Positions 1-64,000 of a stretch of DNA of 64,000 bases are shown here, piece after piece. The stretch is from an uncultured delta proteobacterium (GTDB lineage Bacteria > Desulfobacterota > Desulfomonilia > UBA1062). The notes below the pieces were generated by a model, which saw only the letters and a list, made by a program, of their open reading frames with translations, was not told the DNA's origin and searched no databases. The stretch covers positions 178,758 to 242,757 of the forward strand of contig CAWCTR010000030.1 in NCBI GenBank assembly GCA_963798485.1. The letters run 5' to 3'. Numbering within the stretch: position 1 is the first letter of the stretch; each line of letters begins with the position of its first letter. A program made the position numbers and the translations under genes.

Positions 1-1
1 A

Positions 2-12369: not shown

Positions 12370-12445
12370 TGGTGCCGAGGGACTGAGTTGAACCGCCGAC
12401 AGGAGGATTTTCAGTACGCTGCTCTACCTGCTGAGCTACTTCGGC
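12370..12445 (-). pseudogene. Degenerate tRNA-Phe(GAA)
   Basis: Reverse complement GCCGAAGTAGCTCAGCAGGTAGAGCAGCGTACTGAAAATCCTCCTGTCGGCGGTTCAACTCAGTCCCTCGGCACCA: cloverleaf with CCA, but mismatches in the acceptor (1), anticodon (2) and T (1) stems. Confidence 0.75.
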
Positions 12446-12461
12446 ACCGTTTGGATGTGTA

Positions 12462-12680: not shown

Positions 12681-12698
12681 AGTAATGGAGGGGAAAAT

Positions 12699-13391: not shown

Positions 13392-13413
13392 CATATTAAT
13401 CTCGTTTGGGGTT

Positions 13414-13494
13414 GATTCCCCTTAGCTTGCTACGGAATGTCTATTCCTTATTGAGGCTTTTGATACCCAGTAGCTTGCAGCGGGGTAGTTCATT
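13414..13494. repeat. IS200/IS605-type subterminal palindromes (non-autonomous remnant)
   Basis: GATTCCCCTTAGCTTGCTACGG and GATACCCAGTAGCTTGCAGCGGGGTAGTTCATT resemble GATACCCCGCAGCTTGCTGCGGGGTAGTTCATT-type ends. Confidence 0.5.
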
Positions 13495-13561
13495 TCCTAA
13501 AAAATATCCTGCGGACGCTTTACTGATGATTTTTTTCGTAATCCAAATGAGGTTTGTAGGC

Positions 13562-13589
13562 TTGAAAATCATGTTTTGATGTGTATAAT
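13562..13589 (+). promoter_or_regulatory. sigma70-type promoter for the C1 peptidase
   Basis: TTGAAA-N16-TATAAT. Confidence 0.5.
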
Positions 13590-13679
13590 GATCACAGTCT
13601 TTCACCGTGGAATTTCTCATCGAATAAAATCATCTTTGATGTTGCTGCTATTTTTATAAATCCTTTGAGGAGGTACAGA

Positions 13680-14613
13680 ATGGAAAAGTTTCAGGAGAAG
13701 AATTGTTCGTGTTTGGCCATGGGGTGGCTTCCCGATTACCCGGATTTCCGAGATTACACGGCTTGGGACAAAACGTGTTTCGCAAAGGCTTTTAGACCTG
13801 AACCAGAAGGATTCGCCGCATGCCATGCTGGTAAAGGCCGGAGTTTCTGAGCCGGTAAAGGTGAAAGAGCCTGCAAAGGTTGATCTCAGGAGGTGGTGCT
13901 CGCCGGTGGAGGACCAGGGGGACTTGGGTTCATGCACTGCCAATGCGGGTGTCGGGCTCTTGGAGTATTACGAGCGCAAGGCATTCGGAAAACACATCGA
14001 TGCATCACGCCTCTTTCTCTACAAGACCACACGCAACCTCATCCATATGAAGGGTGATACCGGGGCATATCTGAGATCCACTATGGAGGCCATGGCACTC
14101 TTCGGCATACCGCCGGAAGAATACTGGCAGTATGACATCAGCAAATTCGATGATGAGCCGAGTGCTTTTTGCTATTCGTTTGCACAAAATTACCAGACAT
14201 TGCAGTACATCAGGCTTGACCCTCCGGGAACTGCGAAAGATCTTCTTCTCAAGACCATTAAGACCAACCTTGCTGCCAAGATCCCTTCCATGTTCGGTTT
14301 CACGGTGTATGACTCCGTCTCTGAAGCAGACGAGAACGGCAGAATACCATTCCCCGGGCCGAAGGAGAAGGTGCTTGGGGGGCATGCGATAATGGCTGCA
14401 GGGTATGATGACAAGATGAAGATCGAGAACACACACAGCGGTGCATCCACAACCGGGGCACTGCTTATCAGAAATTCCTGGGGCAAGGGCTGGGGTGAAA
14501 AGGGCTATGGCTGGCTTCCGTACGACTATGTGCTCCAGGGTCTGGCTGAGGACTGGTGGGTCATGCTCAAAAATGAATGGATCGATACCGGAGAGTTCAG
14601 ATTGGACGAGTAG
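13680..14613 (+). CDS. Papain-like (C1A) cysteine protease, split by a frameshift near 13760
   Basis: RBS GAGGAGG plus ATG at 13680 gives MGWLPDYPDFRDYT; the catalytic part QGDLGSCTANA, GGHAI, IRNSWG..WGEKGY is in the next frame (13825..14613). Confidence 0.85.
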
Positions 14614-14635
14614 GCCAGGATATTAAGAGACGTAT

Positions 14636-14684
14636 AATGGTGGCCGCCTAAGATGTGGAAATCTTAGGGCGGCCACCATTTTTT
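14636..14684. terminator. Intrinsic terminator between convergent genes
   Basis: AATGGTGGCCGCC..GGCGGCCACCATT stem followed by a T run. Confidence 0.75.
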
Positions 14685-14691
14685 GTAGGAG

Positions 14692-15372
14692 CTAACCCCT
14701 TTTTTCCATGGCTTTACTGTCTAAGGCGGGCCTGATGTAGAGGGGCTGCACATCTTGAGAAAGGCTTTCAACAGGGAAGCTCTGTGCAATACCGGCGAGC
14801 ACGGAGGCCCTTGGGTGCCAGAGAAGGGGAGGTCCTTCGTGGTAGAGCCCGCCAAGGTCTTTGATAAGCATATCCCGATAGATGTCGCAGCCGTTGCCCA
14901 CGAACAGGGTGCCTTCCCTCACAAGTGCGGCAATGCCTTCGGGGCGAAGGTCCATGAAATCAGTCAGACGTGAGCCATCCTTATTATATAATGCGCAGAA
15001 GACCTCTGACTTTTTGGCATCGAGAATGGGCATGATGTGCATGGATGAGGGCAGGGCTGAGTGAGCAATGATATCAAGGGTGGGTATGCCTACAAGGGGG
15101 CAGCCAATGGCTTTGGCAAGCCCTTTTGCAGTTGCAATACCGATCCTGAGGCCGGTGAATGAGCCGGGGCCGGTGCCTGTGGCAATGAACGTTATATCAT
15201 CCTTACTGGTAGAGCTCTTGGTCAGGACTTCGTCGATTACCGACAGGATCATGCCCGCATGCCCCACCTTGACAGCGAGGTTGATCTCGCAGATAGTTGC
15301 CTTGTCCCTCATCAGTGCAACGGACAGGCAGCTTGTGGATGTGTCCAGGGCGAGGACATTCACCTTGGTCAT
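14692..15372 (-). CDS. tsaB: tRNA threonylcarbamoyladenosine biosynthesis protein TsaB
   Basis: LALDTS, GPGSFTGLRIG, DA[KR]K.EV, P.YIR. Confidence 0.93.
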   Translation of the reverse strand: MTKVNVLALDTSTSCLSVALMRDKATICEINLAVKVGHAGMILSVIDEVLTKSSTSKDDITFIATGTGPGSFTGLRIGIATAKGLAKAIGCPLVGIPTLDIIAHSALPSSMHIMPILDAKKSEVFCALYNKDGSRLTDFMDLRPEGIAALVREGTLFVGNGCDIYRDMLIKDLGGLYHEGPPLLWHPRASVLAGIAQSFPVESLSQDVQPLYIRPALDSKAMEKRG

Positions 15373-16721
15373 CCTTTAAATATGCGGGTGATGTCGTTGT
15401 AAAAGGCAAAGAGCATGAGCATGATCAGGATGAAGAGTCCGATCTGCTGGGCTAACTCCCGGGGTTTGCCTTCAACGGGTTTACCGGTGATTCCCTCGAT
15501 AAGGAAGAGCAGCAGGTAGCCGCCGTCAAGTACGGGGATGGGCATCAGGTTGATAATGGCAAGGTTGATGCTGATGAAGGCTATCAGAGAGATAAACGCA
15601 AGCGGGCCTTCCCTGAAGGTCTGCCCGGAGACCTGTGCTATCTGGATGGGCCCTCCAAGGCTATCCTTGGCACTGATGGTACCCTTAATCATCTTTCCAA
15701 AGGCTATACCTGTGAGTTCTATGATCTTATAACACCGGCCGAACCCATAGCCGATACCGGCTAATGGTCCGTATCTCTTTTTGCCTACTTCTCTCTCCTT
15801 GGGACTGATCCCTATTATCACCTGAGAATGTTTTTTACCGAAGAAGCTCGTACTTACTTGCATTTCAGGCACGACATGGAGCGTTGTAGGCTTGCCGTCC
15901 CTGGTTACTTCAATCTCAATATTCTTACCTGCGCCTATGTCTTGGAGTTTCTGCTGTATATCCTCCCAGTTGTCCATAGGGGTCTGTGCAACTGCCACGA
16001 CCCTGTCACCGGATTTCAATCCAGCCTTATCTGCGGGAGAACCCTTATCTATCTCCCCCAAGACAGTATCATAAGGGCTGATTCCGATTATAAACCTGGG
16101 AATCTGTTCGCCGAAGAGGTTCTTCTGCATTTTTATGATAGGGGTTACGTGCAGAACGTATACCTTGGAATCCCGCATGAGTTCGATCTCAACACTCTTA
16201 CCCACAACCGAGTTTTGAAGAGAGGTCGATATATCTTCAAAAGCGAATATCTGTTTATTCTCTATAGTCTGTATCCGGTCACCAGGTAATAATCCTGCCT
16301 TATCGGCAGGAGAGTCCTTCTGTACCCCGCCTACAACCGGCAGGAGATAGGGCACGCCCACCCAGGCAATAACCGTTAAGATCACTACTGCTAACAGAAA
16401 GTTGAAGAAAGGGCCTGAAAAGACAATTGCCGCCTTAGCGCCGAGCCCTTTGCGCGAGAAGGACTTCTCCGGGTCGATGTGGGTAAGCTGATCCTTGTCA
16501 TCCGGGTCTTCACCGAGCATCTTGACATAACCGCCAAGTGGAAATGCCGCCAGTTGGTATTCCGTCTCACCGAATCTCATTTTAATGAGCGCCGGACCGA
16601 AGCCTAACGAGAACTTCAGCACCCCGACCCCGCTTGCCTTTGCCATGAGAAAATGGCCGAGTTCGTGGAAGAAGATCAGGATTCCAAGGACGATAATGAA
16701 TGCTAGGATTGTTATTATCAT
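15369..16721 (-). CDS. rseP: RIP metalloprotease RseP (two PDZ domains)
   Basis: HELGH, FSLGFG, PLGGYVKM, NLMPIPVLDGG. Confidence 0.95.
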   Translation of the reverse strand: MIITILAFIIVLGILIFFHELGHFLMAKASGVGVLKFSLGFGPALIKMRFGETEYQLAAFPLGGYVKMLGEDPDDKDQLTHIDPEKSFSRKGLGAKAAIVFSGPFFNFLLAVVILTVIAWVGVPYLLPVVGGVQKDSPADKAGLLPGDRIQTIENKQIFAFEDISTSLQNSVVGKSVEIELMRDSKVYVLHVTPIIKMQKNLFGEQIPRFIIGISPYDTVLGEIDKGSPADKAGLKSGDRVVAVAQTPMDNWEDIQQKLQDIGAGKNIEIEVTRDGKPTTLHVVPEMQVSTSFFGKKHSQVIIGISPKEREVGKKRYGPLAGIGYGFGRCYKIIELTGIAFGKMIKGTISAKDSLGGPIQIAQVSGQTFREGPLAFISLIAFISINLAIINLMPIPVLDGGYLLLFLIEGITGKPVEGKPRELAQQIGLFILIMLMLFAFYNDITRIFKG

Positions 16722-52352: not shown

Positions 52353-52424
52353 TCAGGAAGGAAACATCTCCAAGCGCGCTCACGCTGACATGAGCAACAT
52401 TTTCCTATCCCCGAACAAACGCCC

Positions 52425-52464
52425 TGGCGGGCATCGATCCGACGGTGCCCGCCGGTTCTTATTT
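52425..52464 (+). terminator. GC-rich hairpin after rplQ
   Basis: GGCGGGCATCG-loop-CGGTGCCCGCC followed by GGTTCTTATTT. Confidence 0.5.
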
Positions 52465-52688
52465 AGGCATCGTGGGGTCAAAAATAAAAGTTCTTTCGAT
52501 AATCTCAAGCTTTTCTATTGTGAAAAGTTCATTCAGAGATTTCTACAAGTCTTTAAGGCAGTCACAGTATAGATTTATCAAATCGTTAACGCCCCCACAT
52601 TGACCTTCTTTTTCTGCCGAATCCTCGATATGTTGAATTAGATGATTGATTATCTCCTTCGGAATCCTGTGAGAACAGTTTGTAGTTT

Positions 52689-52848
52689 GTAGGTTGGGTT
52701 GGGCCTGCGAAACCCAACACCTACGGGGGTTGGTTGTAAAAGCGTGTTTGAATAAAGCTGCCCAAGGGCAGTGAGGGGGTTGGTATCTTTAAGATGATAT
52801 CATAATGAAATTGATATTGTTGGGTTTTGCAGGCCCAACCCAACCTAC
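52689..52848. repeat. REP doublet (REPIN-like) made of inverted GTAG-type REPs
   Basis: GTAGGTTGGGTTGGGCCTGCGAAACCCAACA ... TGTTGGGTTTTGCAGGCCCAACCCAACCTAC. Confidence 0.85.
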
Positions 52849-52988
52849 TGACTCCCAACAATAAAGAACTGACTCAAATGCAGGCCAAGGCATACAGGAA
52901 ACGCATCACCTGATAATGCCTCTGTTCATTCTGAAGATCCGGTGGTATATTTTAAGTTCACTCCAAAACAGGGGGAGGGGGGATTCGT

Positions 52989-53287: not shown

Positions 53288-53324
53288 TGGGGAAAAAGTC
53301 CCCATAGTGGGGAATTATGCTCCG
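53288..53324. promoter_or_regulatory. Putative upstream activator sites for a sigma54 enhancer-binding protein
   Basis: Palindrome TGGGGA-N5-TCCCCA followed by a degenerate copy TGGGGAATTATGCTCCGA, 70-100 bp upstream of the -24/-12 promoter. Confidence 0.5.
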
Positions 53325-53390
53325 ATTATTCTATGAATATACCATGGGCCTGATTGTCTAACCTTCTAAATTAAAACTACTTAATACCAG

Positions 53391-53405
53391 TGGCACTGTA
53401 ATTGC
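53391..53405 (+). promoter_or_regulatory. sigma54 (-24/-12) promoter of the hydrogenase operon
   Basis: TGGCAC-TGTAA-TTGC is a perfect consensus match. Confidence 0.75.
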
Positions 53406-53488
53406 CTTCTCATATTCCAGCGGTTTATCGAGTGCAGCTTTATTTATACGCTGCTCTTGCAAAACAGTAATGAGGGAGGGTTTACAAA

Positions 53489-55300
53489 ATGTGGGTGACA
53501 ACCTGCCAGGGAAGCGCCTGTGTAGAACCGGCTATCAAGCAGTTCCTGCCGCCGTGCCAGGTCAGATGTCCTATCAACGAGGACATCCAGCGGACAAATG
53601 TGCTCATCTCCATGCTGCCTGCGGACCCGAAGCAGGCTAAAGAAGGGCTTTTTCAGATCGGAGACCATCTTTACGACAACAATCCGTTCTTCCCTGTCTG
53701 CGGTTATGTATGCGGCATATGCGAGCTCGGCTGCAACTACAAGAGCAAGGGGGGGTCCATCAGAAGAAGGTTGCTCAAGCGGTTCGTATCGGACAATTAT
53801 CTGAACCATCTCGAAAAGAAGGATGAGTTCGACGTCGTCAAGGGCAAGGAAAATGTCGCCGTCATCGGCGGCGGTCCTGCAGGACTCATGTGCGCCTTTG
53901 AACTGGGGAGGAGAGGCTTCCGGGTTACGATATATGAGGCGCTCAACCGGTTGGGAGGGGCACTATGGCTCATTCCTCACTACCGTCTCCCCAAGGATGT
54001 GCTCCAAAGGGTAATCCAGAACATGCTCCGCATAGCCGGGATCGATGTGAAACTGAATACCAGTGCGGGCGATGGCAAGCTCACCATTGAAAGGCTGAAG
54101 AAAGAAGGCTATCAGGCGGTATTCATCGCCAAGGGGACGCCTTCGCCCAGGATCCTCACCTTCGGCAAGGATGCCGTTGAAAACCAGGACCTTGCCGGGG
54201 TCATGTACGGCCAGTCATTCCTCTATGAGGTAAGCAGGGGAATACTGCCCATTGATTACTTCAGCGGGAAAAAGATCATTGTCATCGGGGGAGGCAATGT
54301 GGCCTTCGATGTGGCGCGCTCTGCACGGCGGCTCGGCGGGGATGTCACGGTCGTGTCGCTGGAATCCGAGGATAAATCGAGTAAAGACGGCATACCGGCC
54401 GACCATGAAGAAATAAAGGGGGCATGGGAAGAGGGCATAAACCTTGTCTGCTCGAGGGGGGTAAGTCATATCAACGGGAAGAGTGGAAAGTTCACCGGCA
54501 TCCAGACCCCTCTGTGTACGTGCGTATTTGATAAGGAAGGAAGGTTTAATCCTGCCTTTGATACGACAGATGTCATGACCATTGATGGCGATGTGCTCAT
54601 AATCACGGTCGGTCAGGGTCCTGACCGCTCGTTCCTCCAGAGAGAGGGTCTGCTGGATGAGCAGGGAAGGTTGAATGTCGACCCTGTGACTCTCCAGAGC
54701 AAAAGCAAAGACTGGGTCTTTATCGGGGGCGATGTGAGACGAATCGGATACATGGTGGACGCCCTGAAGGAAGGCAAGGAGGCCGCCGTATCCATCGAGC
54801 GCTATCTCAAGGGGATTGATATTGCAATAGGCAGAAAACGTGAATTCGAGGCCTTGGATATCCCGCAGCTCAAGGATGAGGATTATAAGGATGAACCCGA
54901 GACCGTGTGGATACCGCCTGAGAAGCGCATGCACTTCCAGCTCTTTGAGCGGGGGTTCACTCTTGAAGAGGCCATTGAGGAGGCAAAGCGGTGTCTTTGC
55001 TGCGGACCGTGCATATCCTGCAAGGCATGCGTTTCCATCGGCCTGCAGGAAAACATACCGAATGTGGTTGTAAACCAGAATCTGTGCAGCGGATGCGGGA
55101 TCTGTGTTTCATCCTGCCATTACGGCGCTGCATATCTGAGGCAGGAAGACGGCTCACTGCTCTCGGCAATAGACACCTACCGGTGCAAGGCCTGCGGGAT
55201 GTGCGTCTCGGCGTGTCCGGCAGAGGCCAGGGAGCTGGTGGGTTCGGACATGAAAAAACATATAGCTGAATGCTTTTCGGCATTGCAGGAGGCCCGATGA
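53489..55300 (+). CDS. GltD/NfnB/HdrL-like FAD- and NAD-binding Fe-S oxidoreductase with a C-terminal 2x[4Fe-4S] ferredoxin domain
   Basis: PPCQ..CP and CGYVC..CE..C Fe-S domain; GGGPAG (FAD); GGGNVA.D (NAD(P)); RCLCCGPC..C..C; CSGCGICVSSC and CKACGMCVSACP. Confidence 0.8.
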   Translation: MWVTTCQGSACVEPAIKQFLPPCQVRCPINEDIQRTNVLISMLPADPKQAKEGLFQIGDHLYDNNPFFPVCGYVCGICELGCNYKSKGGSIRRRLLKRFVSDNYLNHLEKKDEFDVVKGKENVAVIGGGPAGLMCAFELGRRGFRVTIYEALNRLGGALWLIPHYRLPKDVLQRVIQNMLRIAGIDVKLNTSAGDGKLTIERLKKEGYQAVFIAKGTPSPRILTFGKDAVENQDLAGVMYGQSFLYEVSRGILPIDYFSGKKIIVIGGGNVAFDVARSARRLGGDVTVVSLESEDKSSKDGIPADHEEIKGAWEEGINLVCSRGVSHINGKSGKFTGIQTPLCTCVFDKEGRFNPAFDTTDVMTIDGDVLIITVGQGPDRSFLQREGLLDEQGRLNVDPVTLQSKSKDWVFIGGDVRRIGYMVDALKEGKEAAVSIERYLKGIDIAIGRKREFEALDIPQLKDEDYKDEPETVWIPPEKRMHFQLFERGFTLEEAIEEAKRCLCCGPCISCKACVSIGLQENIPNVVVNQNLCSGCGICVSSCHYGAAYLRQEDGSLLSAIDTYRCKACGMCVSACPAEARELVGSDMKKHIAECFSALQEAR

Positions 55301-55713
55301 TGGAAAAGGAAAAAACCAAGACAATATTCTCTCCGAGGCTTGTATGCTTTACCTGCAGGTTCGGGTGGGGATATCTTAACTCAGGTGAATTCAGCAAAGA
55401 GTTCAAGAATATCATCCCGGTCATGTGCAGTGGGAAGGTGGATACCCTTCATATCGTGGATGCATTCAGAAATGGTGCGGATGGGGTTCTTATCCTGGGA
55501 TGCGCGGACGGGAGCTGCCACTTCCAGAACGGCAACTATCAGGCGAGGAAGAGGGTTCTCCTTATGCGCAAGACGCTTCATGAATTCGGCATTGAGCCTG
55601 AGCGCGTTATGATCAAGCTGGATATGGACCCTGAAGGGGTAACGATCCCTTCTCTTATTAATCAGATGCATGAGAATCTGGCCAAACTCGGGCCGGTCTC
55701 ACCGACCGTTTAG
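55297..55713 (+). CDS. mvhD: [2Fe-2S] subunit MvhD
   Basis: F.C, V.CSGKVD, AF..GADGVLILGC..GSCHF..GNY. Confidence 0.85.
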   Translation: MMEKEKTKTIFSPRLVCFTCRFGWGYLNSGEFSKEFKNIIPVMCSGKVDTLHIVDAFRNGADGVLILGCADGSCHFQNGNYQARKRVLLMRKTLHEFGIEPERVMIKLDMDPEGVTIPSLINQMHENLAKLGPVSPTV

Positions 55714-55736
55714 AAATCTACGTTTAAGGAGATGGT

Positions 55737-56714
55737 ATGGCTGAAAAACCGAAAGTCGCCATTTATTGGCTGACAGCCTGTGGAGGTTGCGATGAGACCA
55801 TTGTGGATCTCAACGAGGCGATCCTCCAGGTGGCTGATGCAGTGGATATCGTTTTGTGGCCCGTGGCCATGGATTTCAAGTACAAAGGCATCAAGGCCAT
55901 GAAGAAGGGCGAGATCACCCTTTCCATCATCCATGGATCGGTCAGAAACTCCGAACAGGAGGAGATGGCAAAGGTGCTTCGCGAAAAATCACAGATCGTG
56001 CTGGCTTTCGGTGCTTGCGCCTGCTTCGGAGGAACGCCGGGAATGGCGAATTTCAGGACCAAAAAGGACATCTTCGACTGGGTATACCGTGACGCGCCGA
56101 CCGTGGTGAACCCGAAAAAGAACTATCCCCAGACAGAGACGATCATCAACGGGAACAAGCTGACGCTGCCTGAATTCTATGAAAGGGTCTATAAACTCGA
56201 TGACATCATCGATGTGGAATATTATCTACCCGGGTGCCCGCCTCCGCCTGAGCTCGTAGCGCAGGCGGTGTTCGCCGTGGTGGAGGGAAAACTCCCCCCC
56301 CGCGGCACTACGCTGACCCCGCGGAAGCCTCTGTGTGATGTTTGTCCCCGGAACCAGTCGAAACCCATCAAGATGGAGATCAACGAGATAAAACGGATCC
56401 ATGCCGTAGAGGCTGATCCGGACAAGTGTTTTCTGGCCCAAGGGATATTGTGCATGGGGCCGGCCATTAGATCAGGGTGCGGAGAGACGTGCATACGGAT
56501 AAACATGCCCTGCAGGGGCTGCTTCGGCCCGGTGGAAGGGGTGGCGGATGCGGGGACCAAGTTCATTTCCGGTCTTGCGGCGCTCCTGGGCGCTGAAAGC
56601 GAGTCTGATGCCTCAAAGGCCATTGACGGCATTGCCGACCTTGCCGGGTACTGCTACCGCTTCAGCCTTCCTTCAGTTTCCTTGAAGAACAAATCATCCC
56701 AGAAGACGAGGTAA
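55737..56714 (+). CDS. mvhG: Group 3c [NiFe]-hydrogenase small subunit
   Basis: W..ACGGC, GSVRN, FGACA.FGG, LPGCPP, C.GP..RSGC...C....PCRGCFG. Confidence 0.88.
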   Translation: MAEKPKVAIYWLTACGGCDETIVDLNEAILQVADAVDIVLWPVAMDFKYKGIKAMKKGEITLSIIHGSVRNSEQEEMAKVLREKSQIVLAFGACACFGGTPGMANFRTKKDIFDWVYRDAPTVVNPKKNYPQTETIINGNKLTLPEFYERVYKLDDIIDVEYYLPGCPPPPELVAQAVFAVVEGKLPPRGTTLTPRKPLCDVCPRNQSKPIKMEINEIKRIHAVEADPDKCFLAQGILCMGPAIRSGCGETCIRINMPCRGCFGPVEGVADAGTKFISGLAALLGAESESDASKAIDGIADLAGYCYRFSLPSVSLKNKSSQKTR

Positions 56715-56719
56715 GAACC

Positions 56720-58180
56720 ATGACCCAGAAGATATCCATTGATCCCATAACCAGGCTTGAAGGGCACGGCAAGATAGAGATCTTCCTTGACGACAAAGGC
56801 AACGTGGCCGACGCATACTGGCAGGTGGTGGAGCTGCGCGGGTTCGAGCGCTTCTGCATCGGCAGGCCGGTAGAAGAGATGACAAGGATTGTCCCAAATA
56901 TCTGCGGTGTGTGCCCTTCCGCACACCATATGGCGGCAACCAAGGCCCTTGACGATCTTTACAGCGTTGAACCTACACCTGCAGCCAGGCTCATCAGAGA
57001 GCTCGAGTTCAATGCCTTCTATATCGAAGACCACTATATCCATTTCTTCTTCCTGGCCGCCCCGGACTTTATCATGGGCCCGGATGCCGATCCTAAGGAG
57101 CGCAATATCCTGGGTGTGATCGGCAAGGTCGGCAAGGAGATAGGGCAAAGGGTAATAGAGGTCCGCAAGCGCAACCGTGATATCATCAGGCATATCTTCA
57201 GCAAGGCGCCGCACCCGGAAGGAGGCCTTCCCGGAGGCGTACCCAGAGGCTTCACCGAGGATGACCGGAAGTGGGTCAAGGATACGGCCGCCTTCTCCCT
57301 GGACTTTGCAAAATTCGCCATACAGCTTTTCAAGGACGCCGTGTTATCGAACAAATCCTATGTCGATCTCATCCTGAACGATGCCTACAGCCTTAAAACC
57401 TATTACATGTCGCTCGTGGACGAGAATAACAGGACTACCTTCTATGACGGGGCCGTGCGGGTCGTGGACCAGAAAGGGAAAGAATACGTCAAATTCCATC
57501 CTAGGGACTATGACCAGTACATAGGTGAATGGGTGGAGCCCTGGACCTATATCAAGCTCAACCACCTGAAGCAGCTCGGCTGGCACGGCCTCAAGGATGG
57601 TGAAGGCACCTCGCTGTACCGGGTGGCCCCGCTTGCGAGGTTGAACGTGGGAGACTCCATGCAGACGCCCCTTGCCCAAAAGGAGGCACAGATCATGTTC
57701 GATACCCTGGGCGGAAAGCCTGCGCACCAGACCCTTGCGACCCACTGGGCGCGCCTCATCTGCGCGCTGCAGGCGGCCGAGAACAATGTAATGATCGCCG
57801 ACGCACCTTTGCTTACGAGCAAGGACCTGCGCAATATGAACCTGAAGCTCAGGAACAAAGGGGTCGGTTGTGTTGAGGCCCCGAGGGGCACGCTGTTCCA
57901 CCACTACGAGACCGATGATGAAGGCATCCTTACCAAGGTGAACCTGATCGTTGCAACCCAGAATAATGCAGCACCCATCTGCCTGTCGGTTAAAAAGGCT
58001 GCGCAGGCCTTTGTGAAAGGGCCTGACGTGAAAGAGGGGTTCCTCAATATGGTGGAAATGGCGTTTCGGGCCTATGACCCTTGCCTTTCATGCGCCACCC
58101 ACTCACTGCCGGGCACCATGCCCATGACCGTGACTATCCGCAATAACCAGGGCGCAGTCATACGGCAGATCAAAAGGTGA
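56720..58180 (+). CDS. mvhA: Group 3c [NiFe]-hydrogenase large subunit
   Basis: IDPITRLEGHG, ICGVCP, EAPRGTL.HHY, RAYDPCLSCATH plus a cleavable C-terminal tail. Confidence 0.9.
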   Translation: MTQKISIDPITRLEGHGKIEIFLDDKGNVADAYWQVVELRGFERFCIGRPVEEMTRIVPNICGVCPSAHHMAATKALDDLYSVEPTPAARLIRELEFNAFYIEDHYIHFFFLAAPDFIMGPDADPKERNILGVIGKVGKEIGQRVIEVRKRNRDIIRHIFSKAPHPEGGLPGGVPRGFTEDDRKWVKDTAAFSLDFAKFAIQLFKDAVLSNKSYVDLILNDAYSLKTYYMSLVDENNRTTFYDGAVRVVDQKGKEYVKFHPRDYDQYIGEWVEPWTYIKLNHLKQLGWHGLKDGEGTSLYRVAPLARLNVGDSMQTPLAQKEAQIMFDTLGGKPAHQTLATHWARLICALQAAENNVMIADAPLLTSKDLRNMNLKLRNKGVGCVEAPRGTLFHHYETDDEGILTKVNLIVATQNNAAPICLSVKKAAQAFVKGPDVKEGFLNMVEMAFRAYDPCLSCATHSLPGTMPMTVTIRNNQGAVIRQIKR

Positions 58181-58187
58181 TCCTTAA

Positions 58188-58670
58188 GTGAAGGTCCTCG
58201 TACTCGGCATGGGCAATCCCATCCTGTCGGACGATGGGGTAGGCATTGTTATAGCCAATGCCCTTGAAGGAAAGGTCAAGGGGGCCGATGTTGCGACAAG
58301 CGCCATGATCGGGCTTGATCTGCTTGATGCCGTTACCGGGTACGATAAAGTATACCTCATCGATGCCATGTGCACCCGGGATGGGAAGATAGGGGAGGTG
58401 AAGAAGATCTCAGAGGAAGGTGGCGCCGGGACCATGCATCTGTTCACCTCCCACGGGATCCATTTCTTTGAACTCATGGAGCTTGGTAAGCGCTGCGGCC
58501 TGAACATGCCCGAAATCGGCACGGTCTATGGCATTGAGATCGGTGACAATGTCAGTTTCGGTAACTCGCTTACCCTGGAACTCCAAAAAAAAATAGCACC
58601 TATCATGGATATGATATTAGGCGACATACGCACAACAGACACTATGAGTTTTATGCTTAAGGCAACATAG
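58188..58670 (+). CDS. Hydrogenase maturation protease
   Basis: VLGMGNPILSDDGVG, IDA, SH motifs. Confidence 0.88.
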   Translation: MKVLVLGMGNPILSDDGVGIVIANALEGKVKGADVATSAMIGLDLLDAVTGYDKVYLIDAMCTRDGKIGEVKKISEEGGAGTMHLFTSHGIHFFELMELGKRCGLNMPEIGTVYGIEIGDNVSFGNSLTLELQKKIAPIMDMILGDIRTTDTMSFMLKAT

Positions 58671-59384: not shown

Positions 59385-60200
59385 GTTAGAAGTTTTCGAG
59401 TATAGGAGGGATATATGAAGCGAGCCATTGTAATTGGGGCAAGTTCTGGAATTGGCAAAGAACTCGCAACAGTCCTTTCCCGGAACGGTTACGCGGTTGG
59501 CCTTACGGGAAGACGGATTGATCTTCTGGAGGAACTGAAAAGCAATCTTCCGAATCCTGGTTTTACAAAGCAGATGGATATCTCCGATCATTCCAAGGCA
59601 ATGGATCTCTTAGAGAATCTCATTGTGGATATGGGAGGAGTTGACCTGATTGTCATTTCCGCTGGTATCGGGTTTATCAATTCCGATCTTAACTGGGGGG
59701 ATGAGAAGAAGACGATCGATGTAAATGTCTCTGGGTTCACAGCCATGGCAAATGTCGCTTTTCGTTACTTTGTTCAATCTGGTCGAGGACATCTGGTTGG
59801 CATATCCTCTATCGCTGCATTACGCGGGAGTAGAGAGGCTCCGGCCTACAATGCGTCAAAAGCATTCATCTCAAACTATATGGAAGGCCTCAGATTCAGA
59901 GCTTTAAAGGCTGGTTTACCCATCGTGATAACAGATATAAAGCCAGGCTTTGTTGATACTGCTATGGCCAAAGGAGAGGGGCTTTTCTGGGTAGCCCCAA
60001 CACAAAAAGCTGCACGCCAGATTCAGGAGGCAATTCAGAAGAAGGCAAGTCATGCCTATATCACAAAAAGGTGGGCTCTTATTGGTTGCCTGTTAAGAGT
60101 GCTGCCGGATTTCCTCTACTCCAAATTATGAAATTTTCTAACCTCCGGATCAACCGGACGCGCAGGGATAACGGCGAGGTGTTACCTGTAGGCCCTTAAG
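59385..60200 (+). mobile_element. Possible integron-type gene cassette carrying the SDR gene
   Basis: GTTAGAA core 30 bp before the ATG and the complementary TTCTAAC 4 bp after the stop, followed by an attC-like CTCCGGATCAACCGGACGCG and a hairpin. Confidence 0.45.
59415..60131 (+). CDS. SDR family oxidoreductase
   Basis: GASSGIG, SS, YNASK, PGFVDT. Confidence 0.9.
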   Translation: MKRAIVIGASSGIGKELATVLSRNGYAVGLTGRRIDLLEELKSNLPNPGFTKQMDISDHSKAMDLLENLIVDMGGVDLIVISAGIGFINSDLNWGDEKKTIDVNVSGFTAMANVAFRYFVQSGRGHLVGISSIAALRGSREAPAYNASKAFISNYMEGLRFRALKAGLPIVITDIKPGFVDTAMAKGEGLFWVAPTQKAARQIQEAIQKKASHAYITKRWALIGCLLRVLPDFLYSKL

Positions 60201-60475
60201 GCCGGCCATTGAAGTTTATGTTGTCTTAATGAATATCTGCGATAGATGAGGGCCACATTGCTCCCAGGAAAACTGTGATCTCCAGATCGGATCTATAGAA
60301 ATAGCCTCCCAAATCGATACTCTATATAGTCGCACGATATGTGTTAAAAAATCGTATCGATAGAAACCGAGCTTTTGTACCAAACTCGTCAAACCGAGTA
60401 TGTTGTGTGCCTAGCATAGATCTCTTCCTGCAATCTTCAGTTTGCTTGATTGCCTCATGATGTTATTATTATTTT

Positions 60476-60922
60476 ATGAAAGGAAGGTTCACTATTCGGA
60501 GTGCGGGTACACTTTTCTTATTGTCAGCTGCCTTCGAAATTTTGTCCATAACCTCTTCAATCCCGCTTTTCGGCGCAATTCGTTCAGGAGCCTTAGCAAT
60601 AACTTATCATTTTCTCTATATAGCTCTCTTTCTGATTATAGGTATTGGGCTACTGGTTCCAAGGCAATGGGGTTATAAAGCTGCTTTTATTGGTGCGTTT
60701 TTTTCCACTCTAGATAAAGTTCTTTTTCTATTAGATCGCAAATCTATGGATACATATTTGTTGCAGCAGTTGGGAAGTTACAACTCAATTATACAGATAA
60801 TAGGCACTCGCACCATATTCCAGGTTTTAATACTTACAACATTGATGTCCATAGCCTCTTGGTGGGGATTCATATTGTATTTACATATTCGTAAAGATTA
60901 TTTTTATTCTCAGAAAAAATAG
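60476..60922 (+). CDS. Hypothetical membrane protein (about 4 TM segments)
   Basis: 148-aa hydrophobic ORF. Confidence 0.6.
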   Translation: MKGRFTIRSAGTLFLLSAAFEILSITSSIPLFGAIRSGALAITYHFLYIALFLIIGIGLLVPRQWGYKAAFIGAFFSTLDKVLFLLDRKSMDTYLLQQLGSYNSIIQIIGTRTIFQVLILTTLMSIASWWGFILYLHIRKDYFYSQKK

Positions 60923-61177
60923 TTTAGAATGAAGTTCTCCTTTACTTGATAAGGGAAAAACACAAGATTCGGGGCTTTTGTAGAGATGCAAGGATACGAA
61001 TGATAAGTGAGCAGCTCAAATGACCTGCCTATATGCGTCCTGAGCAAGAGTTCAATCATGACCTCGCCAAATAATTGGATAGAGGGGACAATCAAAACCA
61101 CTCCTGCGCGAATAAGGCGATCTCATCTTGGGATTGGTCCCTGGTATGAATGCCCATTCCGTAAATATTTGTAATAG

Positions 61178-61648
61178 TCAGACGGTCTCATCTATCTGTG
61201 ATGAGGGTGTGGTCGTGGTTGTTGAGCTTGAGGACTTATTGTAACTATTTATGATAGACATGAGGTCATTCGGGCTCATAGTAAGCAGGTTTATATCTTG
61301 AATGCCAGAGGTGGAAGAGGATGAGGTGCTATCCGTTGAATTCGTCTGATTTTCTGATAAGATCATATTCACCAGATTAGGATTATTTTGAATAAGCTTC
61401 GTATTTTCTGCGGAAAGTAAGATATCATACATAGAACGGCTTGATACATTTGATGCCGAAGAATCATTGCTCGAGGAACTGAGAAGTGTCTGCAGCATGT
61501 CCAGGGATTGACTCGAGAGACTGACAGTATCCGCTGCACTCAAATCCGAGGTCAGCGTAGAAGTATCACTATTATTGGTTGAAGATGATCCCTGACTGTT
61601 GAGGAGAAGGCTGGAGAGGAGAGAATTGACACTGCTGACACTTGACAT
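61178..61648 (-). CDS. Ser/Thr-rich hypothetical protein
   Basis: RBS AGGAGG before MSSVSSVNSLL; low-complexity Ser/Thr/Asn composition. Confidence 0.6.
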   Translation of the reverse strand: MSSVSSVNSLLSSLLLNSQGSSSTNNSDTSTLTSDLSAADTVSLSSQSLDMLQTLLSSSSNDSSASNVSSRSMYDILLSAENTKLIQNNPNLVNMILSENQTNSTDSTSSSSTSGIQDINLLTMSPNDLMSIINSYNKSSSSTTTTTPSSQIDETV

Positions 61649-61671
61649 GCATGATCCTCCTTGTTCATATC

Positions 61672-61698
61672 TTATCGGCAAGTTGAAGAAAACTTCAA
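61672..61698 (-). promoter_or_regulatory. Possible sigma28 (FliA) promoter
   Basis: TTGAAGTT-N11-GCCGATAA upstream of the Ser-rich ORF. Confidence 0.4.
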
Positions 61699-61723
61699 CA
61701 ATTTAATGGTATATTCACGACAT

Positions 61724-62140
61724 CTAATGCAACCTAGTACTCCATGGCATAAGAGGATTCTGAAGGGCACTAAGATCCATTCGGATATAAGAATCATCAA
61801 CTGTATGGGAAATAACCGTGGCCCCGTCTATGGTGATAGGATATAATCCATTGTAGCTATAGGCATCCGTGCGAGGCCCTATGTGAAGGATAGTGATATT
61901 AAAATTAGTTACCCCGAAATAACCACCAGTAGTTTTTTCTCCCCAGATGTTGTTTGAACCAAGACCATCAGAGTCTCCCCAAGCAATGACATCGAAGTGT
62001 ATATCCATTGTGATATTAGGCATGATACTCACACCAGTCTGTCCGCTGACATCAGAAAGCTCGGAGTCAGTAAGAGGTGTCATTGCCCAAGTGGAAAATG
62101 GGAGTGAAAAGATAATAAAAAACAGCAGTGCTCTTTTCAT
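61724..62140 (-). CDS. Secreted DUF6160-like protein
   Basis: Signal peptide followed by AMTPLTDSELSDVSGQTGVSI..WGDSDG. Confidence 0.6.
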   Translation of the reverse strand: MKRALLFFIIFSLPFSTWAMTPLTDSELSDVSGQTGVSIMPNITMDIHFDVIAWGDSDGLGSNNIWGEKTTGGYFGVTNFNITILHIGPRTDAYSYNGLYPITIDGATVISHTVDDSYIRMDLSALQNPLMPWSTRLH

Positions 62141-62176
62141 AACTCTTTACCTCAGTATTATTATATTCCTGTCGTC

Positions 62177-62193
62177 AGCAAAGGCAATGCCTA
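62177..62193 (-). promoter_or_regulatory. sigma54-type promoter
   Basis: Reverse complement TAGGCATTGCCTTTGCT (GG-N10-GC). Confidence 0.5.
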
Positions 62194-62208
62194 TATTAGA
62201 AAGGATAT

Positions 62209-62440
62209 GCTGACATTACAAAACCGGCCTTATGCCTACTCCATGAGAGACTGAAGGGTTCCGTTATTATGATCATTGCTTGCATCCACGACGAGATTAT
62301 TCTTTGAGGCTCCTGGTGAAGAAACAGATATGGCGGCAGCGATTTTGCAGGAATCCATGATCGTAACTGGGCAGCACTATCTGAAAAGTGTCCCGATCGA
62401 GGTGGAGGTAAGCGTGGCCGATACCTGGGCTGAAAAGTAG
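62209..62440 (+). pseudogene. Family A DNA polymerase C-terminal fragment
   Basis: ADITKPALCLLHERLKGS..IIACIHDEIIL, +1 shift, EAPGEE..AAAILQESM...GQHYLKSVPIEVEVSVADTWAEK-stop. Confidence 0.7.
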
Positions 62441-62839
62441 AGCTGTTTCAGGTAGTAACAGAAAGAGATATATTGGCTGCTACTCCTTCTGGAATCACTC
62501 ATGTTTATTCATTTTGGGTAAGGTTCATCTGCCAGGCCTGTCCTGAGATAATACATTATATTCCAAGATCTCTGGTTGAGGGCAAGGAGATGTGACCGAG
62601 GATTTATTGCGTGACTGTCGAAAAACTCCGACAAGCTCTAGAACTACCAAATTTGGACCATTAAAAACACAAGCCTGGAGAAAATCCAGAAACAGATCGA
62701 AGCGGCGGCAGGTGGCCAGTAATTCGCCCCAAATCCGGGCTCAAGCTTCAACTGGATTTGATCGGGATGGCGCAACGGTACTTGACTTCTATTCGCAAGC
62801 TCTTACCAAACTACTATCCTGCTTGCAAGGAGGTGCGCC

Positions 62840-63052
62840 ATGAGCAGTGCTGAAGCTTTCAATCGTTCGGGGTTTTCACGATTCATCAATAGCCAGGCCG
62901 GCCGCGTTTTTCGCCTGGTCGCCGGTACGGGATTTCTCGTAGTTGGTTATTTGTTCCGGGATCACCCGCTCGGCGTGATCTCCATGGCGTTCAGCGTTCT
63001 CCCGTTGAGCGCCAATTTATCGCAGTTATCTATACAAGCTTTAAAACTTTAA
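62840..63052 (+). pseudogene. YgaP/DUF2892-like small membrane protein, probably 3'-truncated
   Basis: RBS AAGGAGG; F.RFINS.AGR.FRLVAG...LPLSA followed by an unrelated AT-rich tail. Confidence 0.4.
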
Positions 63053-63097
63053 AAGCGAACTCTAGCTTCCCCTCTTAGATACATCAAGGGTTATGAT

Positions 63098-63790
63098 TTA
63101 GTGAGATCTAATGTTTAACCAGCTGCCAGTCTGGATGGTTGTACTAGTATTATTGATGTAGGTGTCCCGCATTTCGGTATTACCAGACATTATAGGATAA
63201 CTCAAAGGACTATTTGAACTATGTGTGTCATCCTTGGGATATGAATATGGTATAGTTGGTGTATCTGTCGTTTGAGTATAGTTATAGGTTTCATTATTAA
63301 TGTCTTCAGCATTGACTGCTTTACCATTGATGGTTGTAAAGTAATTTTTCCAAAAAGATGGATTAATCGAAAAGATCTGATATTGGTTAAAAATAGCATC
63401 TTCATAAAATAAAGTAGTCCAATCTTTCCCAGTAGCTGGATCAATCATAAAGATCTGAACGTTGTTAAGAATATTATTATTACCCCCTAACCAGGGGAAT
63501 GAGGAGAACTGTTTATTAGTTGCATATCTTTCTGCGGTCTCGTCAGGGTCTTCAAATAGATTCACGTCAAAATGCAACATTAAGCCTGATGAGGTTGGTA
63601 ATAATTGGCTGAGACTCTCAGAAGAATCCGACGAATTGGGTTTATTAGTTGTCTTTATTATCTGCTCGATATTGATGCTTAAGCTGAGAGGGTTGCTAAC
63701 ATTGGAGAGATCAGATTCAGTGAGTGGAGTCATTGCACACAGGGGGAACGGTAATATGAGTACTGCTAAAAACGTTAAAAATTTCCCCAT
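63098..63790 (-). CDS. Secreted hypothetical protein with a DUF6160-like N-terminus
   Basis: MGKFLTFLAVLILPFPLCAMTPLTESDLSNVS; RBS GAGG. Confidence 0.55.
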   Translation of the reverse strand: MGKFLTFLAVLILPFPLCAMTPLTESDLSNVSNPLSLSINIEQIIKTTNKPNSSDSSESLSQLLPTSSGLMLHFDVNLFEDPDETAERYATNKQFSSFPWLGGNNNILNNVQIFMIDPATGKDWTTLFYEDAIFNQYQIFSINPSFWKNYFTTINGKAVNAEDINNETYNYTQTTDTPTIPYSYPKDDTHSSNSPLSYPIMSGNTEMRDTYINNTSTTIQTGSWLNIRSH

Positions 63791-64000
63791 AAGATTACCT
63801 CTATTTAATCCAAGATGAATCATTTCATAACAAGATACCCCCCTTAATTTAATGCAAAGAATGTGCTAAATGAAACATGCTATAAATTCAATTGATTTGC
63901 AATTGATATGAATTAAAAAACGAAAGTTATGTGAAATATGATTCCATTTATATGGAATAAGTATCCTGTTTTAATGATATCCTGATTATGCATTAGACCC

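Follow-up and report, generated by a model that had tools for sequence, protein, structure and literature searches.

The operon at positions 53489-58670 on the forward strand of the 64,000-nucleotide stretch of DNA analysed here (the window) raises the question of what takes the place of heterodisulfide reductase (Hdr) as the partner of an Mvh-type hydrogenase. The evidence points to an NADH-type iron-sulfur flavoprotein as the most likely partner, in an enzyme interconverting H2 and NADH. The operon is real and widely conserved, and it encodes a soluble Mvh-type [NiFe] hydrogenase; its five open reading frames lie as an earlier note on this DNA had placed them. The first gene (53489-55300) codes for a 603-aa iron-sulfur flavoprotein of the GltD/NfnB fold, with matches in Pfam and NCBIfam, which we propose to be the NAD(H) port (diaphorase). 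It is followed by mvhD (55297-55713; a [2Fe-2S] connector of 138 aa belonging to a divergent subfamily), mvhG (55737-56714; the hydrogenase small subunit, 325 aa with 14 cysteines), mvhA (56720-58180; the [NiFe] large subunit, 486 aa) and a gene with a GTG start for a 160-aa hydrogenase maturation endopeptidase (58188-58670). For mvhD, an alignment of 28 sequences favours the start at ATG 55297 (with ATG 55300 as an alternative) over the ATG 55270 of the open reading frame list. The flavoprotein stop (TGA 55298-55300) thus overlaps the mvhD start, as previously remarked, or abuts it if ATG 55300 is used. Together with an AGGAGG ribosome-binding site read within the end of the flavoprotein gene (55287-55292), this overlap indicates that the two genes are translationally coupled.

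MvhA carries the motifs N-I-C-G-V-C and DPCLSCATH and a 25-residue C-terminal extension; N[IV]CG[IV]C recurs in 67/67 MvhA proteins of related cassettes and DPCxxCxxH in 65 of these 67. The best NCBIfam matches of MvhA and MvhG are VhuA (371 bits) and VhuG (200.9 bits), each under its cut-off (800 and 450, respectively), and MvhG also matches Pfam Oxidored_q6. In the PDB, MvhA matches 7t2r_D (357.7 bits), 5odc_F (348.4 bits) and 5xf9_D (322.7 bits), scoring as high against HydL of the bifurcating A. mobile enzyme (7t2r_D) as against MvhA itself. MvhD matches PF02662 with 108 bits over profile positions 29-123 only, and the cassette MvhD copies of five other genomes show the same partial match, starting at position 29 or 30. 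Its C20, C44, C69 and C74 are invariant in the 28-sequence alignment, and its closest solved relatives are 8rvu_F and 5odc_D. The protease is recognized by TIGR00072 (81.6 bits; cut-off 47.45); among 64 complete related loci, 31 have it downstream and 3 upstream, and in 30 it is outside the locus.

The four-gene synteny for which the earlier note had suggested searching was recovered in related loci from Desulfobacterota, Chloroflexota and Acidobacteriota: flavoprotein, mvhD, mvhG and mvhA are complete, in this order and on the same strand in all 64 loci whose contig runs on far enough to hold them (3.9 kb or more beyond the flavoprotein gene), and in the other 18 of the 82 contig ends interrupt, leaving only the genes that fit. 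The flanks of these loci share no further conserved redox gene, and no ferredoxin gene is conserved nearby; homologues of hdrB/C occur in the flanks of a single locus (1/82), which has hdrCBA just downstream. About ten loci have a NuoG-like gene upstream, and in L113, the one neighbourhood that was read, the cassette immediately follows a NiFe hydrogenase cluster of the NuoEFG type, an odd arrangement if both enzymes merely serve NADH.

The description of the locus as Hdr-free stands for the operon and for its contig, where searches for CCG and HdrA gave no match, but not for the whole genome: another contig (C21) carries a 1499-aa HdrL-like gene, hdrB, hdrC, two further mvhD copies and MetF. 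Accordingly, one can envisage the flavoprotein and MvhDGA as an input module docking on an Hdr-type core from another locus, for instance this HdrL-HdrBC, and passing electrons from H2 and NADH to a bifurcating disulfide or methylene-THF reductase. Besides the content of C21, further MvhD copies in all five other genomes checked, the single locus with hdrCBA and the acceptance of several input modules by Hdr cores, as described in an excerpt of PMC13518236, are in keeping with such docking. We nevertheless hold it to be very unlikely: hdrB/C are absent nearby in 81/82 loci, with no conserved linkage; the cassette MvhD belongs to the divergent subfamily with the truncated Pfam match; and its fusion to the flavoprotein in relatives (below) implies that its docking face is taken by the latter. 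Moreover, complete hdrA-mvhD-mvhG-mvhA sets are present, separate from the cassette, in two Chloroflexota genomes that carry it, so that Hdr-linked Mvh there has its own mvhDGA beside hdrA. The MvhA proteins of those sets are 54-58% identical to the MvhA of the window, and a tree groups the 34 MvhAs from cassettes in a clade of their own, separate from the three hdrA-linked ones (SH-aLRT 90). As genomes with Hdr-linked Mvh carry this separate set, a dedicated HdrABC partner for MvhD elsewhere, which the earlier note had named as a result that would speak against its reading, is unlikely; cross-talk with HdrL-HdrBC or the further MvhD copies may occur.

The flavoprotein begins with a GltD-type Fe-S domain (aa 21-105, 53549-53803; Fer4_20, 29.0 bits; cut-off 25.8), in which C23, C27, C71, C75, C78, C82 and Lys97 are each invariant in 81/81 family members. 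Within the following Pyr_redox_2 domain (aa 122-429) lie an FAD-binding Rossmann motif (aa 122-160, 53852-53968; GGGPAG...E150), matched by NAD_binding_8, DAO and FAD_binding_2 and with invariant G127, G129, P130, G132 and E150, and a second Rossmann or nucleotide site (aa 262-305, 54272-54403) reading GGGNVAFD...VVSL-E292-SEDKSSKDGIPAD. The protein has one flavin site. A conceivable reading is that the FAD site reduces a non-pyridine substrate such as polysulfide or a disulfide, an activity reported for NfnB homologues of the SudA type, with the second Rossmann domain being structural; in the excerpt of PMC5736913, NfnBA homologues are said to be often annotated as SudBA, a polysulfide reductase. 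The invariance of GGGNVAxD and E292 in 81/81 members argues for a site that is used. We rate this the most improbable of the readings considered.

Further along, the motif EAKRC-LC-C-GP-C-IS-C-KA-C (aa 499-514, 54983-55030) retains its five cysteines (C502, C505, C508, C511 and C514) in 81/81 proteins. It had been taken for an extra cluster; the motif is present, but in the alignment with NfnL (5jca_L, domain 1) it pairs with the N-terminal EAxRCLxC..PC and is at least partly that motif relocated, so that it need not all represent a further cluster. The HdrL of this genome has the same RCxxCxxCxxC motif after its GltD insert. The protein ends in a 2x[4Fe-4S] ferredoxin domain (aa 526-581, 55064-55231; Fer4_10 and Fer4_7) with all eight cysteines kept in 81/81 members. 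Its assignment to the HdrA C-terminal type is borne out by alignment to HdrA 578-633 of 5odc_A (51.8 bits), and we propose that it acts as a docking adaptor for MvhD. Altogether 20 cysteines are invariant, exceeding the needs of a two-cluster wire, and these could mean a ferredoxin branch. An AF2 model of the flavoprotein (pLDDT 89.7) finds its best fold matches in the GltD-like regions of NfnA (9n5u_A, TMq 0.72) and StnC (8oh5_C, 0.71), followed by NfnL (5jca_L, TMt 0.77). The family is tight, at 596-605 aa, which rules out the idea that the protein is a fragment of a split hdrL.

That the flavoprotein and MvhD associate is suggested by gene fusions: in an own-phylum sample, all four matches at 54-55% identity are flavoprotein-MvhD fusions of 724-727 aa followed by mvhG-mvhA. 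A C-terminal MvhD domain is present in 27 of the nearest 150 representatives of clusters made at 50% identity, and in 6/10 of those checked with Pfam. Modelling of the complex, proposed in the earlier note, supports the contact, with an ipSAE of 0.70 (runs 0.69, 0.72 and 0.70; best of three controls 0.00), a mark reached by 58/80 solved complexes and 2/110 mismatched pairs. Contacts are shared between the runs to 90% or more, partner pLDDT is no lower than 81, and residues 567-603 of the flavoprotein fall within the MvhD interface. The model may owe its score to solved HdrA-MvhD complexes on which the predictor was trained.

The ligand of the proximal cluster bears on whether the enzyme bifurcates. 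Lys97 (81/81) corresponds to the Lys in the LKRF sequence of NfnA (9n5u_A, 9bov_A; K165 of Tsi NfnA), a position occupied by the Glu of LERF in NfnL/NfnB (5jca_L, 4ylf_B). Excerpts of PMC10482914 and PMC12018979 describe Lys-type modules, namely the StnC and NfnA NADPH ports, as non-bifurcating and bifurcating NfnL/NfnB as having the Glu ligand; it is the former that the flavoprotein matches best in both sequence and fold. An Hdr-independent complex that bifurcates or confurcates, coupling H2 oxidation to reduction of NAD+ and ferredoxin at the same time, or running in reverse, with the extra clusters or ferredoxin domain as the ferredoxin site, would accord with the fold shared with NfnL/NfnB and its bifurcating FAD (TMt 0.77), the 20 invariant cysteines and surface dicluster domain, and the likeness of MvhA to the large subunit of bifurcating NiFe-HydABCSL (7t2r_D, the top PDB match). 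Confurcation, according to an excerpt of PMC5606693, benefits syntrophs. We think such coupling unlikely. Apart from the Lys, the sole flavin must give hydride to NAD+ and so, in the classical scheme, could not double as a one-electron splitter; with NADH as donor (-320 mV), H+ (-414 mV) and ferredoxin both lie below NADH, per an excerpt of PMC9430772; and no ferredoxin gene is conserved near the cassette.

As to the nucleotide, the earlier reading of VSLES instead of YRR after the second Rossmann strand holds throughout the family: L291-E292 is present in 81/81 members, Glu292 taking the place of the first Arg in the YRR of NADPH-type relatives. An acidic residue ending strand 2 normally repels the 2'-phosphate of NADP(H). 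Two GltD-type paralogues in the same genome (C32_475 and C2_1013) retain Y-RR, the former a separate NfnB-like protein that also has the Glu cluster ligand, and HdrL has LEG. A linear complex that is specific for NADP(H) or uses both nucleotides, and so performs a group-3b-like function with Mvh parts, is left as a rather improbable alternative by these acidic and paralogue patterns. It draws on the conservation after E292 of basic K296 (80/81) and K/R299 (74/81), on the use of NADPH by all solved relatives (NfnL, NfnA, StnC, DPD and GltD), and on the GxGxxA fingerprint, treated as an NADP-type form in an excerpt of PMC12054007.

Of the two readings offered by the earlier note, the NfnB-type bifurcating hydrogenase is thus disfavoured by Lys97 and the single flavin site, whereas the direct NADH-H2 oxidoreductase made from Mvh parts is favoured by the hdr-free synteny, the fusions, the modelled interface and Glu292. 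We therefore regard an Hdr-independent, non-bifurcating H2:NAD(H) oxidoreductase as somewhat probable, with the choice of nucleotide and the lack of ferredoxin coupling being the parts that we infer. The flavoprotein, MvhD, MvhG and MvhA would form a single soluble complex catalysing the reversible reaction H2 + NAD+ = NADH + H+. H2 would be split at the NiFe site of MvhA, and single electrons would travel along the clusters of MvhG to the [2Fe-2S] centre of MvhD, which would be seated on the HdrA-type C-terminal ferredoxin domain of the flavoprotein. From there the [4Fe-4S] chain, with Lys97 ligating its last cluster, would lead to the single FAD, which would pass a hydride to NAD+. No DsrA was found in the source genome; this suggests a fermentative or syntrophic host, in which the enzyme might either use NADH to release H2 when H2 is low or take H2 up.

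In the literature, we found neither a biochemical study of this cassette nor an already characterised subtype matching it. The cytoplasmic Mvh1 (Sfum_3535-37) and Mvh2 (Sfum_3954-57) hydrogenases described from Syntrophobacter fumaroxidans, whose complexes are classified as not detected in the source description, have three- and four-gene sizes fitting the fused and split cassette forms, a likeness at the level of annotation only. The group 3c MvhADG-HdrABC and VhuADG-Hdr complexes of methanogens (5ODC, 9SW2) share the same three subunits in the order D-G-A (348 bits for MvhA to 5odc_F, 111 bits for MvhD to 5odc_D) and the dicluster domain of HdrA; the cassette lacks the HdrA flavin domain, HdrB and HdrC, having a GltD-fold NAD(H)-type flavoprotein as partner. 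Its MvhD has CxxC in place of the CCxxC of solved MvhD, and its N-x-C-G-x-C motif in MvhA has Asn in 67/67 members as against Arg in HdrA-linked and HydL-like comparators. The HdrL of the source genome has a GltD insert 35% identical to the flavoprotein, with common LE and RCxxCxxCxxC motifs, and each is followed by mvhD; unlike HdrL, the flavoprotein lacks the thioredoxin-reductase-like flavin domain of HdrA, forms its own family and has no linked hdrBC. An excerpt of PMC12054007 suggests that HdrL-type proteins use NADH, and mentions that in Bathyarchaeota mvhADG occurs next to a type III hdrA. The NfnAB/NfnSL transhydrogenase (4YLF, 5JCA) has in common the large-subunit fold, the FAD and nucleotide sites and the N-terminal Fe-S domain, but the flavoprotein differs in its Lys ligand, its Glu for the first Arg of YRR, the lack of an NfnA/NfnS partner gene and its extra C-terminal clusters. 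The top matches, which extend over up to 641 aligned columns and take in the part beyond the Rossmann domains, are the GltD-like NADPH ports StnC (S. ovata StnABC, 8OH5) and NfnA (Bfu-type NfnABC, 9N5U, 9BOV), with which it shares the Lys-ligated proximal cluster and the proposed role of a non-bifurcating converter of hydride to single electrons for a cluster chain. Those ports bind NADPH, lie as inserts within a NuoG-like subunit and supply a bifurcating core of the HydBC type. The flavoprotein, by contrast, is a separate protein with Glu where the 2'-phosphate would bind, and it would be wired through MvhD to a NiFe hydrogenase. In its proposed reaction the cassette equals the group 3d NAD+-reducing soluble hydrogenase HoxFUYH (5XF9), whose large subunit is clearly related (322.7 bits); however, the diaphorase of the latter is NuoE/F/G-like with FMN, and the counterpart of HoxFU here would be a GltD-fold FAD protein together with MvhD.

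Five tightly packed genes occupy 53489-58670 on the forward strand of the window, and the ORFs together with Pfam and NCBIfam domain searches confirm the earlier note's observation of an FP-mvhD-mvhG-mvhA-protease operon. FP is a 603-aa GltD/NfnB-fold iron-sulfur flavoprotein (53489-55300, forward strand) with a Fer4_20 domain (aa 21-105, Pfam), a Pyr_redox_2 domain (aa 122-429, Pfam) and a dicluster domain (aa 526-581, Pfam and NCBIfam searches); its best NCBIfam model, NF009410, scores 329 bits against a cut-off of 516. The product of mvhD is recognized by PF02662 (108 bits), while mvhG (55737-56714, forward strand) and mvhA (56720-58180, forward strand) find their best NCBIfam matches in VhuG (200.9 bits, under the cut-off) and VhuA (371 bits against a cut-off of 800), and the maturation endopeptidase (58188-58670, forward strand) is over the cut-off of TIGR00072 with 81.6 bits. 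The FP stop codon TGA (55298-55300) overlaps the mvhD ATG at 55297, with an AGGAGG at 55287-55292; a 28-row alignment favors this start over the ATG at 55270 of the ORF lister. The intergenic gaps of the operon are 23, 5 and 7 nt. FP is preceded by the tail of a ribosomal-protein operon (rplQ, to 52352), a hairpin resembling a terminator (52424-52455) and a 98-aa ORF; no Rex-type operator was seen by eye in 53300-53488, and promoter and terminator scans returned chance-level results only. One DNA sequencing run contains 0.62 of the sampled words and most others small shares, with no RNA run listed.

Between rplQ and the small ORF lies a 42-nt inverted repeat (52678-52859), 88% complementary and with 98 nt between its arms. 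An arm of about 35 nt (GTAGGTTGGGTTGGGCC...) recurs on contigs C1, C21 and C31 of the same genome and once more on the window's own contig, C30, with weaker matches elsewhere, a pattern suggestive of a REP or MITE-like family of repeats. The G+C content is 0.39-0.44 at 1-14000 and 60000-64000 of the window as against 0.50-0.58 mid-window, and at the right, low-GC end lie genes for proteins that are rich in Ser/Thr and have signal-like N-termini (61178-61681, 61724-62140 and 63098-63823).

Database clusters of FP relatives number more than 120, with 62-94% identity and near-full coverage; when they bear a name at all, it is no more than 'FAD-dependent oxidoreductase' or 'glutamate synthase beta-like'. 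Scanning species-representative genomes yielded 208 relatives, of which the best 80, plus those from a further search, furnished 82 loci spanning Desulfomonilia, Syntrophales, Smithella, Syntrophobacteraceae, Geobacteraceae, Desulfobacterales, Acidobacteriota and many Dehalococcoidia; there are no named cultures among the best 80 of the 208, the records being MAGs or single-cell genomes (SAGs), and the clusters of 10 relatives likewise gave MAG names or no name. A check for the same synteny in other genomes found the four-gene order of the cassette (FP-mvhD-mvhG-mvhA) kept throughout: mvhD, mvhG and mvhA follow FP in this order and on the same strand in all 64 loci with at least 3.9 kb past FP. 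The remaining 18 of the 82 are interrupted by contig ends and show what fits, two of them ending inside FP. Clustering of the flanks of the 82 loci revealed no conserved redox gene beyond mvhDGA; the conserved neighbors are the protease (32 loci), a ~478-aa protein (37) and a ~128-aa receiver-like protein (30), the latter two located after mvhA in 30-37 related loci, and hdrB/C homologues are seen in the flanks of a single locus. In an even sample of the host phylum, 10 of 301 genomes (the host, G000, included) have an FP match at E <= 1e-150, and two same-genus genomes and one same-family genome of this sample have none; the cassette is therefore patchy and accessory. The possibility that FP is a fragment of a split hdrL was rejected, as the FP family is full-length and uniform. 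Two variants were observed: P0126, a representative protein of 724 aa that is 52% identical to FP, has a C-terminal response-regulator receiver domain instead of MvhD, and a Desulfatiglandales locus (L092; G003:C2:974564-976017) has a broken cassette mvhA, with one match of 393 residues and another, for residues 387-485, in a different frame, the break being a frameshift, an assembly error or recoding.

The association of FP with MvhD is supported by gene fusion and by modelling. Four of the ten own-phylum matches are 54-55% identical, and all four are FP::MvhD fusions of 724-727 aa with mvhG and mvhA directly after them. A custom HMM detected a C-terminal MvhD domain in 27 of the 150 nearest 50%-identity representatives, and Pfam in 6 of 10 representatives checked. 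Complex modelling, a check proposed by the earlier note, supports a predicted FP-MvhD contact with a score of 0.70 (runs 0.69, 0.72 and 0.70) against 0.00 for the best of three controls; of the reference pairs, 58 of 80 solved complexes and 2 of 110 mismatched ones attain that mark. At least 90% of contacts are common to the runs, the partner pLDDT is at least 81, and the modelled interface brings FP residues 38-49, 500-520, 567-575 and 583-603 against MvhD residues 12-29, 37-61 and 72-82. Because FP 527-582 aligns to HdrA 578-633, the score of the model may reflect memorised HdrA-MvhD structures; in HdrA it is the N- and C-terminal regions, plus a VhuD helix, that bind input modules, according to an excerpt of PMC13518236. 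On the fusions and the predicted complex, FP and MvhD belong together.

MvhA scores 357.7 bits with 7t2r_D, 348.4 with 5odc_F and 322.7 with 5xf9_D from the PDB, and shares 54-58% identity with the HdrA-linked MvhA of bacteria and 42% with HydL-like subunits. A quick maximum-likelihood tree with 41 rows unites the 34 cassette MvhAs in a single clade (SH-aLRT 90), separate from three HdrA-linked sequences and the HydL-like ones, and this clade splits into a Chloroflexota and a Desulfobacterota-plus-Acidobacteriota subclade (SH-aLRT 97 each); the root is not reliable because it is placed on long branches. The motif N-[IV]-C-G-[IV]-C is present in 67 of 67 cassette MvhAs (the comparators have Arg), and in the cassette MvhD the Pfam match starts only at position 29 or 30, and CxxC stands in place of the CCxxC of solved MvhD. 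Two cassette-bearing Chloroflexota genomes also hold complete hdrC-hdrB-hdrA...hdrA-mvhD-mvhG-mvhA sets, in which MvhA is 54-58% identical to the cassette MvhA and MvhD matches the full Pfam profile. Judged by its sequences, the cassette is a paralogue of the Hdr-linked Mvh and not a stray piece of the same. In the HdrA-linked mvhA paralogues of one Chloroflexota genome (L111:4200-5666, reverse strand; L112:11754-13220, forward strand) a TGA stands in frame where R-I-C-G-V-C has its second Cys; it would specify selenocysteine, at a position that is unusual among NiFeSe enzymes; nearby mvhD and hdrA copies in that genome also have single TGAs.

The host genome (4.3 Mb, 97.5% complete) has the window at the end of contig C30, and the description of the hydrogenase as Hdr-free holds for the operon and for C30, which has no CCG-domain or HdrA match, but fails for the genome. 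On contig C21 there is a 1499-aa HdrL-like gene, in which a GltD module 35% identical to FP interrupts an HdrA; hdrB, hdrC, two additional mvhD copies and metF-like genes accompany it. The HdrA parts of this HdrL have no match in FP beyond the dicluster domain. A missing Hdr was discarded as proof of independence, further MvhD copies being present in all five other genomes checked. The genome also encodes a second soluble NiFe large subunit (40% identical) adjoining a NuoG-like gene, two further NiFe large subunits and three FeFe-hydrogenase-type genes; DsrA was not found in it. Flank clustering places a NuoG-like gene upstream of the cassette in some 10 related loci. In L113, the one neighborhood read for this type of cluster, NuoE/NuoF/NuoG-like genes with small and large NiFe subunits (8473-16185, reverse strand) are directly upstream of the cassette on the same strand. 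Its large subunit is 42% identical to MvhA and HydABCSL-like, and the cluster belongs to a separate hydrogenase; this adjacency in L113, with the NuoG-like genes of the other loci, suggests that the cassette and the NuoEFG-type NiFe hydrogenase do different jobs. The host has a reduced version of the L113 cluster with the NuoG-like gene only (C14:273272-277329). On its contig C2 (27457-32049, reverse strand), the gene of a 1013-aa protein with an NADPH-type GltD module (Y-RR, LKRY) as its C-terminal half is closely followed by an FeFe-hydrogenase-type gene (593-aa frame), and the pair may be an FeFe counterpart of the cassette's design.

An AlphaFold model of FP from a 70-row alignment reached pLDDT 89.7 and pTM 0.87, and was used instead of an unusable one from a 15-row alignment (pLDDT 51.5). 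Foldseek places the GltD-like parts of NfnA (9n5u_A, TMq 0.72; 9bov_A) and StnC (8oh5_C, 0.71) at the top, with alignments covering 613-641 columns, followed by NfnL/NfnB, DPD and GltD, and phmmer ranks the relatives in the same order. At the end of strand 2 of the nucleotide Rossmann fold, where the earlier note had read VSLES instead of YRR, L291-E292-(S/C) is found in 81 of 81 aligned members of the FP family, and Y-R-R in NADPH-type paralogues. An acidic residue at this place normally means NAD(H). Against NAD(H) stand the glycine fingerprint GxGxxA and the conserved K296 and K/R299 (excerpt of PMC12054007). FP has 20 invariant Cys; its five-Cys motif (502-514) corresponds in alignment to the RCxxC..PC motif at the N-terminus of NfnL and for this reason probably serves in part to complete GltD-type clusters, not to add one, so that the RCLCCGPC motif of the earlier note may represent an extra cluster only in part, if at all. 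We estimate from the sequence that FP carries four or five [4Fe-4S] clusters.

The best-supported path would run from the NiFe site of MvhA through the MvhG clusters to the [2Fe-2S] of MvhD, from there to the C-terminal dicluster domain and five-Cys region of FP, and through the GltD-type clusters to FAD and NAD+, the whole being reversible. The interpretation of the earlier note is partly supported: of its two readings, the evidence favors the first, an NADH-H2 oxidoreductase, over the second, an NfnB-type bifurcating hydrogenase. Bifurcation by FP-MvhDGA would agree with the many clusters of FP and with an MvhA that matches the bifurcating A. mobile enzyme (7t2r_D, 357.7 bits) no less well than MvhA itself (348.4 bits), but is disfavored by the single flavin site of FP, by its Lys cluster ligand and by the potentials, protons (-414 mV) and ferredoxin both being lower than NADH as donor (-320 mV; values for protons and NADH as quoted in a part of PMC9430772). 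The ligand in question, Lys97 of the proximal cluster (LKRF), is present in 81 of 81 FP members and aligns with the Lys of LKRF in NfnA (9n5u_A, 9bov_A; by our own count residue 173 of the 963-residue PDB chain, K165 of the 955-aa protein), whereas NfnL/NfnB have Glu (5jca_L, 5vj7_A and 4ylf_B alignments); the host's separate NfnB-like gene also has Glu. In the available portions of PMC12018979 and PMC10482914, the Lys-type cluster adjoins the non-bifurcating FAD and the Glu type occurs in bifurcating NfnSL. We regard it as improbable that the cassette represents a third, structurally independent H2-based bifurcation, with one GltD-type FAD between the MvhD [2Fe-2S] and four or five [4Fe-4S] clusters coupling H2, NAD(H) and ferredoxin with neither Hdr nor a HydBC/Bfu core; if true, syntrophs and Dehalococcoidia would have a previously uncounted confurcating NiFe hydrogenase. 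The cassette hydrogenase is probably linked to NADH.

Full-text searches of the open literature found no biochemical or structural study of the FP-MvhDGA enzyme. The nearest literature concerns S. fumaroxidans Mvh1 (Sfum_3535-37) and Mvh2 (Sfum_3954-57) and, in excerpts, HdrL (PMC2702500), the Bathyarchaeota 'type III HdrA', which contains a GltD insert and is encoded next to mvhADG (PMC12054007), and the large HdrA of M. thermoacetica, which oxidizes NADH (PMC9430772). Both S. fumaroxidans loci and Geobacter GSU2416-2423 are candidate members of a putative FP-MvhDGA family. The cassette enzyme is uncharacterised yet widespread, and the kind of enzyme itself is already known. Hydrogen-metabolism surveys usually read MvhA-type genes as heterodisulfide-reductase-linked, electron-bifurcating hydrogenases (a part of PMC6085437); on the large subunit alone the cassette resembles that type, but its partner is different. 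Its carriers are Syntrophales and Smithella relatives, Desulfobacterales, Acidobacteriota and many Dehalococcoidia. Models of syntrophy, of H2 cycling in peat and sediment and of the NADH balance of these organisms are distorted where the cassette is miscalled. It is also a clean natural module swap, in which an HdrA-type docking domain and MvhD join a GltD-type nucleotide port to a NiFe hydrogenase, and a compact four-subunit candidate for an oxygen-sensitive H2:NAD+ catalyst, of which the fused three-gene form should express easily.

With group 3c hydrogenases the cassette shares the large-subunit motifs NICGVC and DPCLSCATH, the 25-residue extension and the protease, and here too MvhD and MvhG are encoded with MvhA (D-G-A order in 64 of 64 loci); the group 3c partner HdrABC appears to have no gene linkage, with hdrB/C near 1 of 82 loci and none on C30. 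HdrL and type III HdrA have a thioredoxin-reductase-like FAD domain, whereas FP matches HdrA models only at aa 525-594, the dicluster. NfnB/NfnL have in common with FP the GltD fold with FAD, nucleotide Rossmann site and N-terminal Fe-S domain (TMt 0.77 for 5jca_L and 4ylf_B), but show the NADPH-type YRR after strand 2, which FP lacks; NfnAB and NfnSL further include a PyrK-like NfnA/NfnS partner, and no such gene is among the conserved neighbors of FP in the flank clustering of the 82 loci. In the Bfu-type NfnA and StnC, the port is inserted in a NuoG-like subunit partnering a HydBC-like bifurcating core, whereas FP is a stand-alone protein without the NuoG part.
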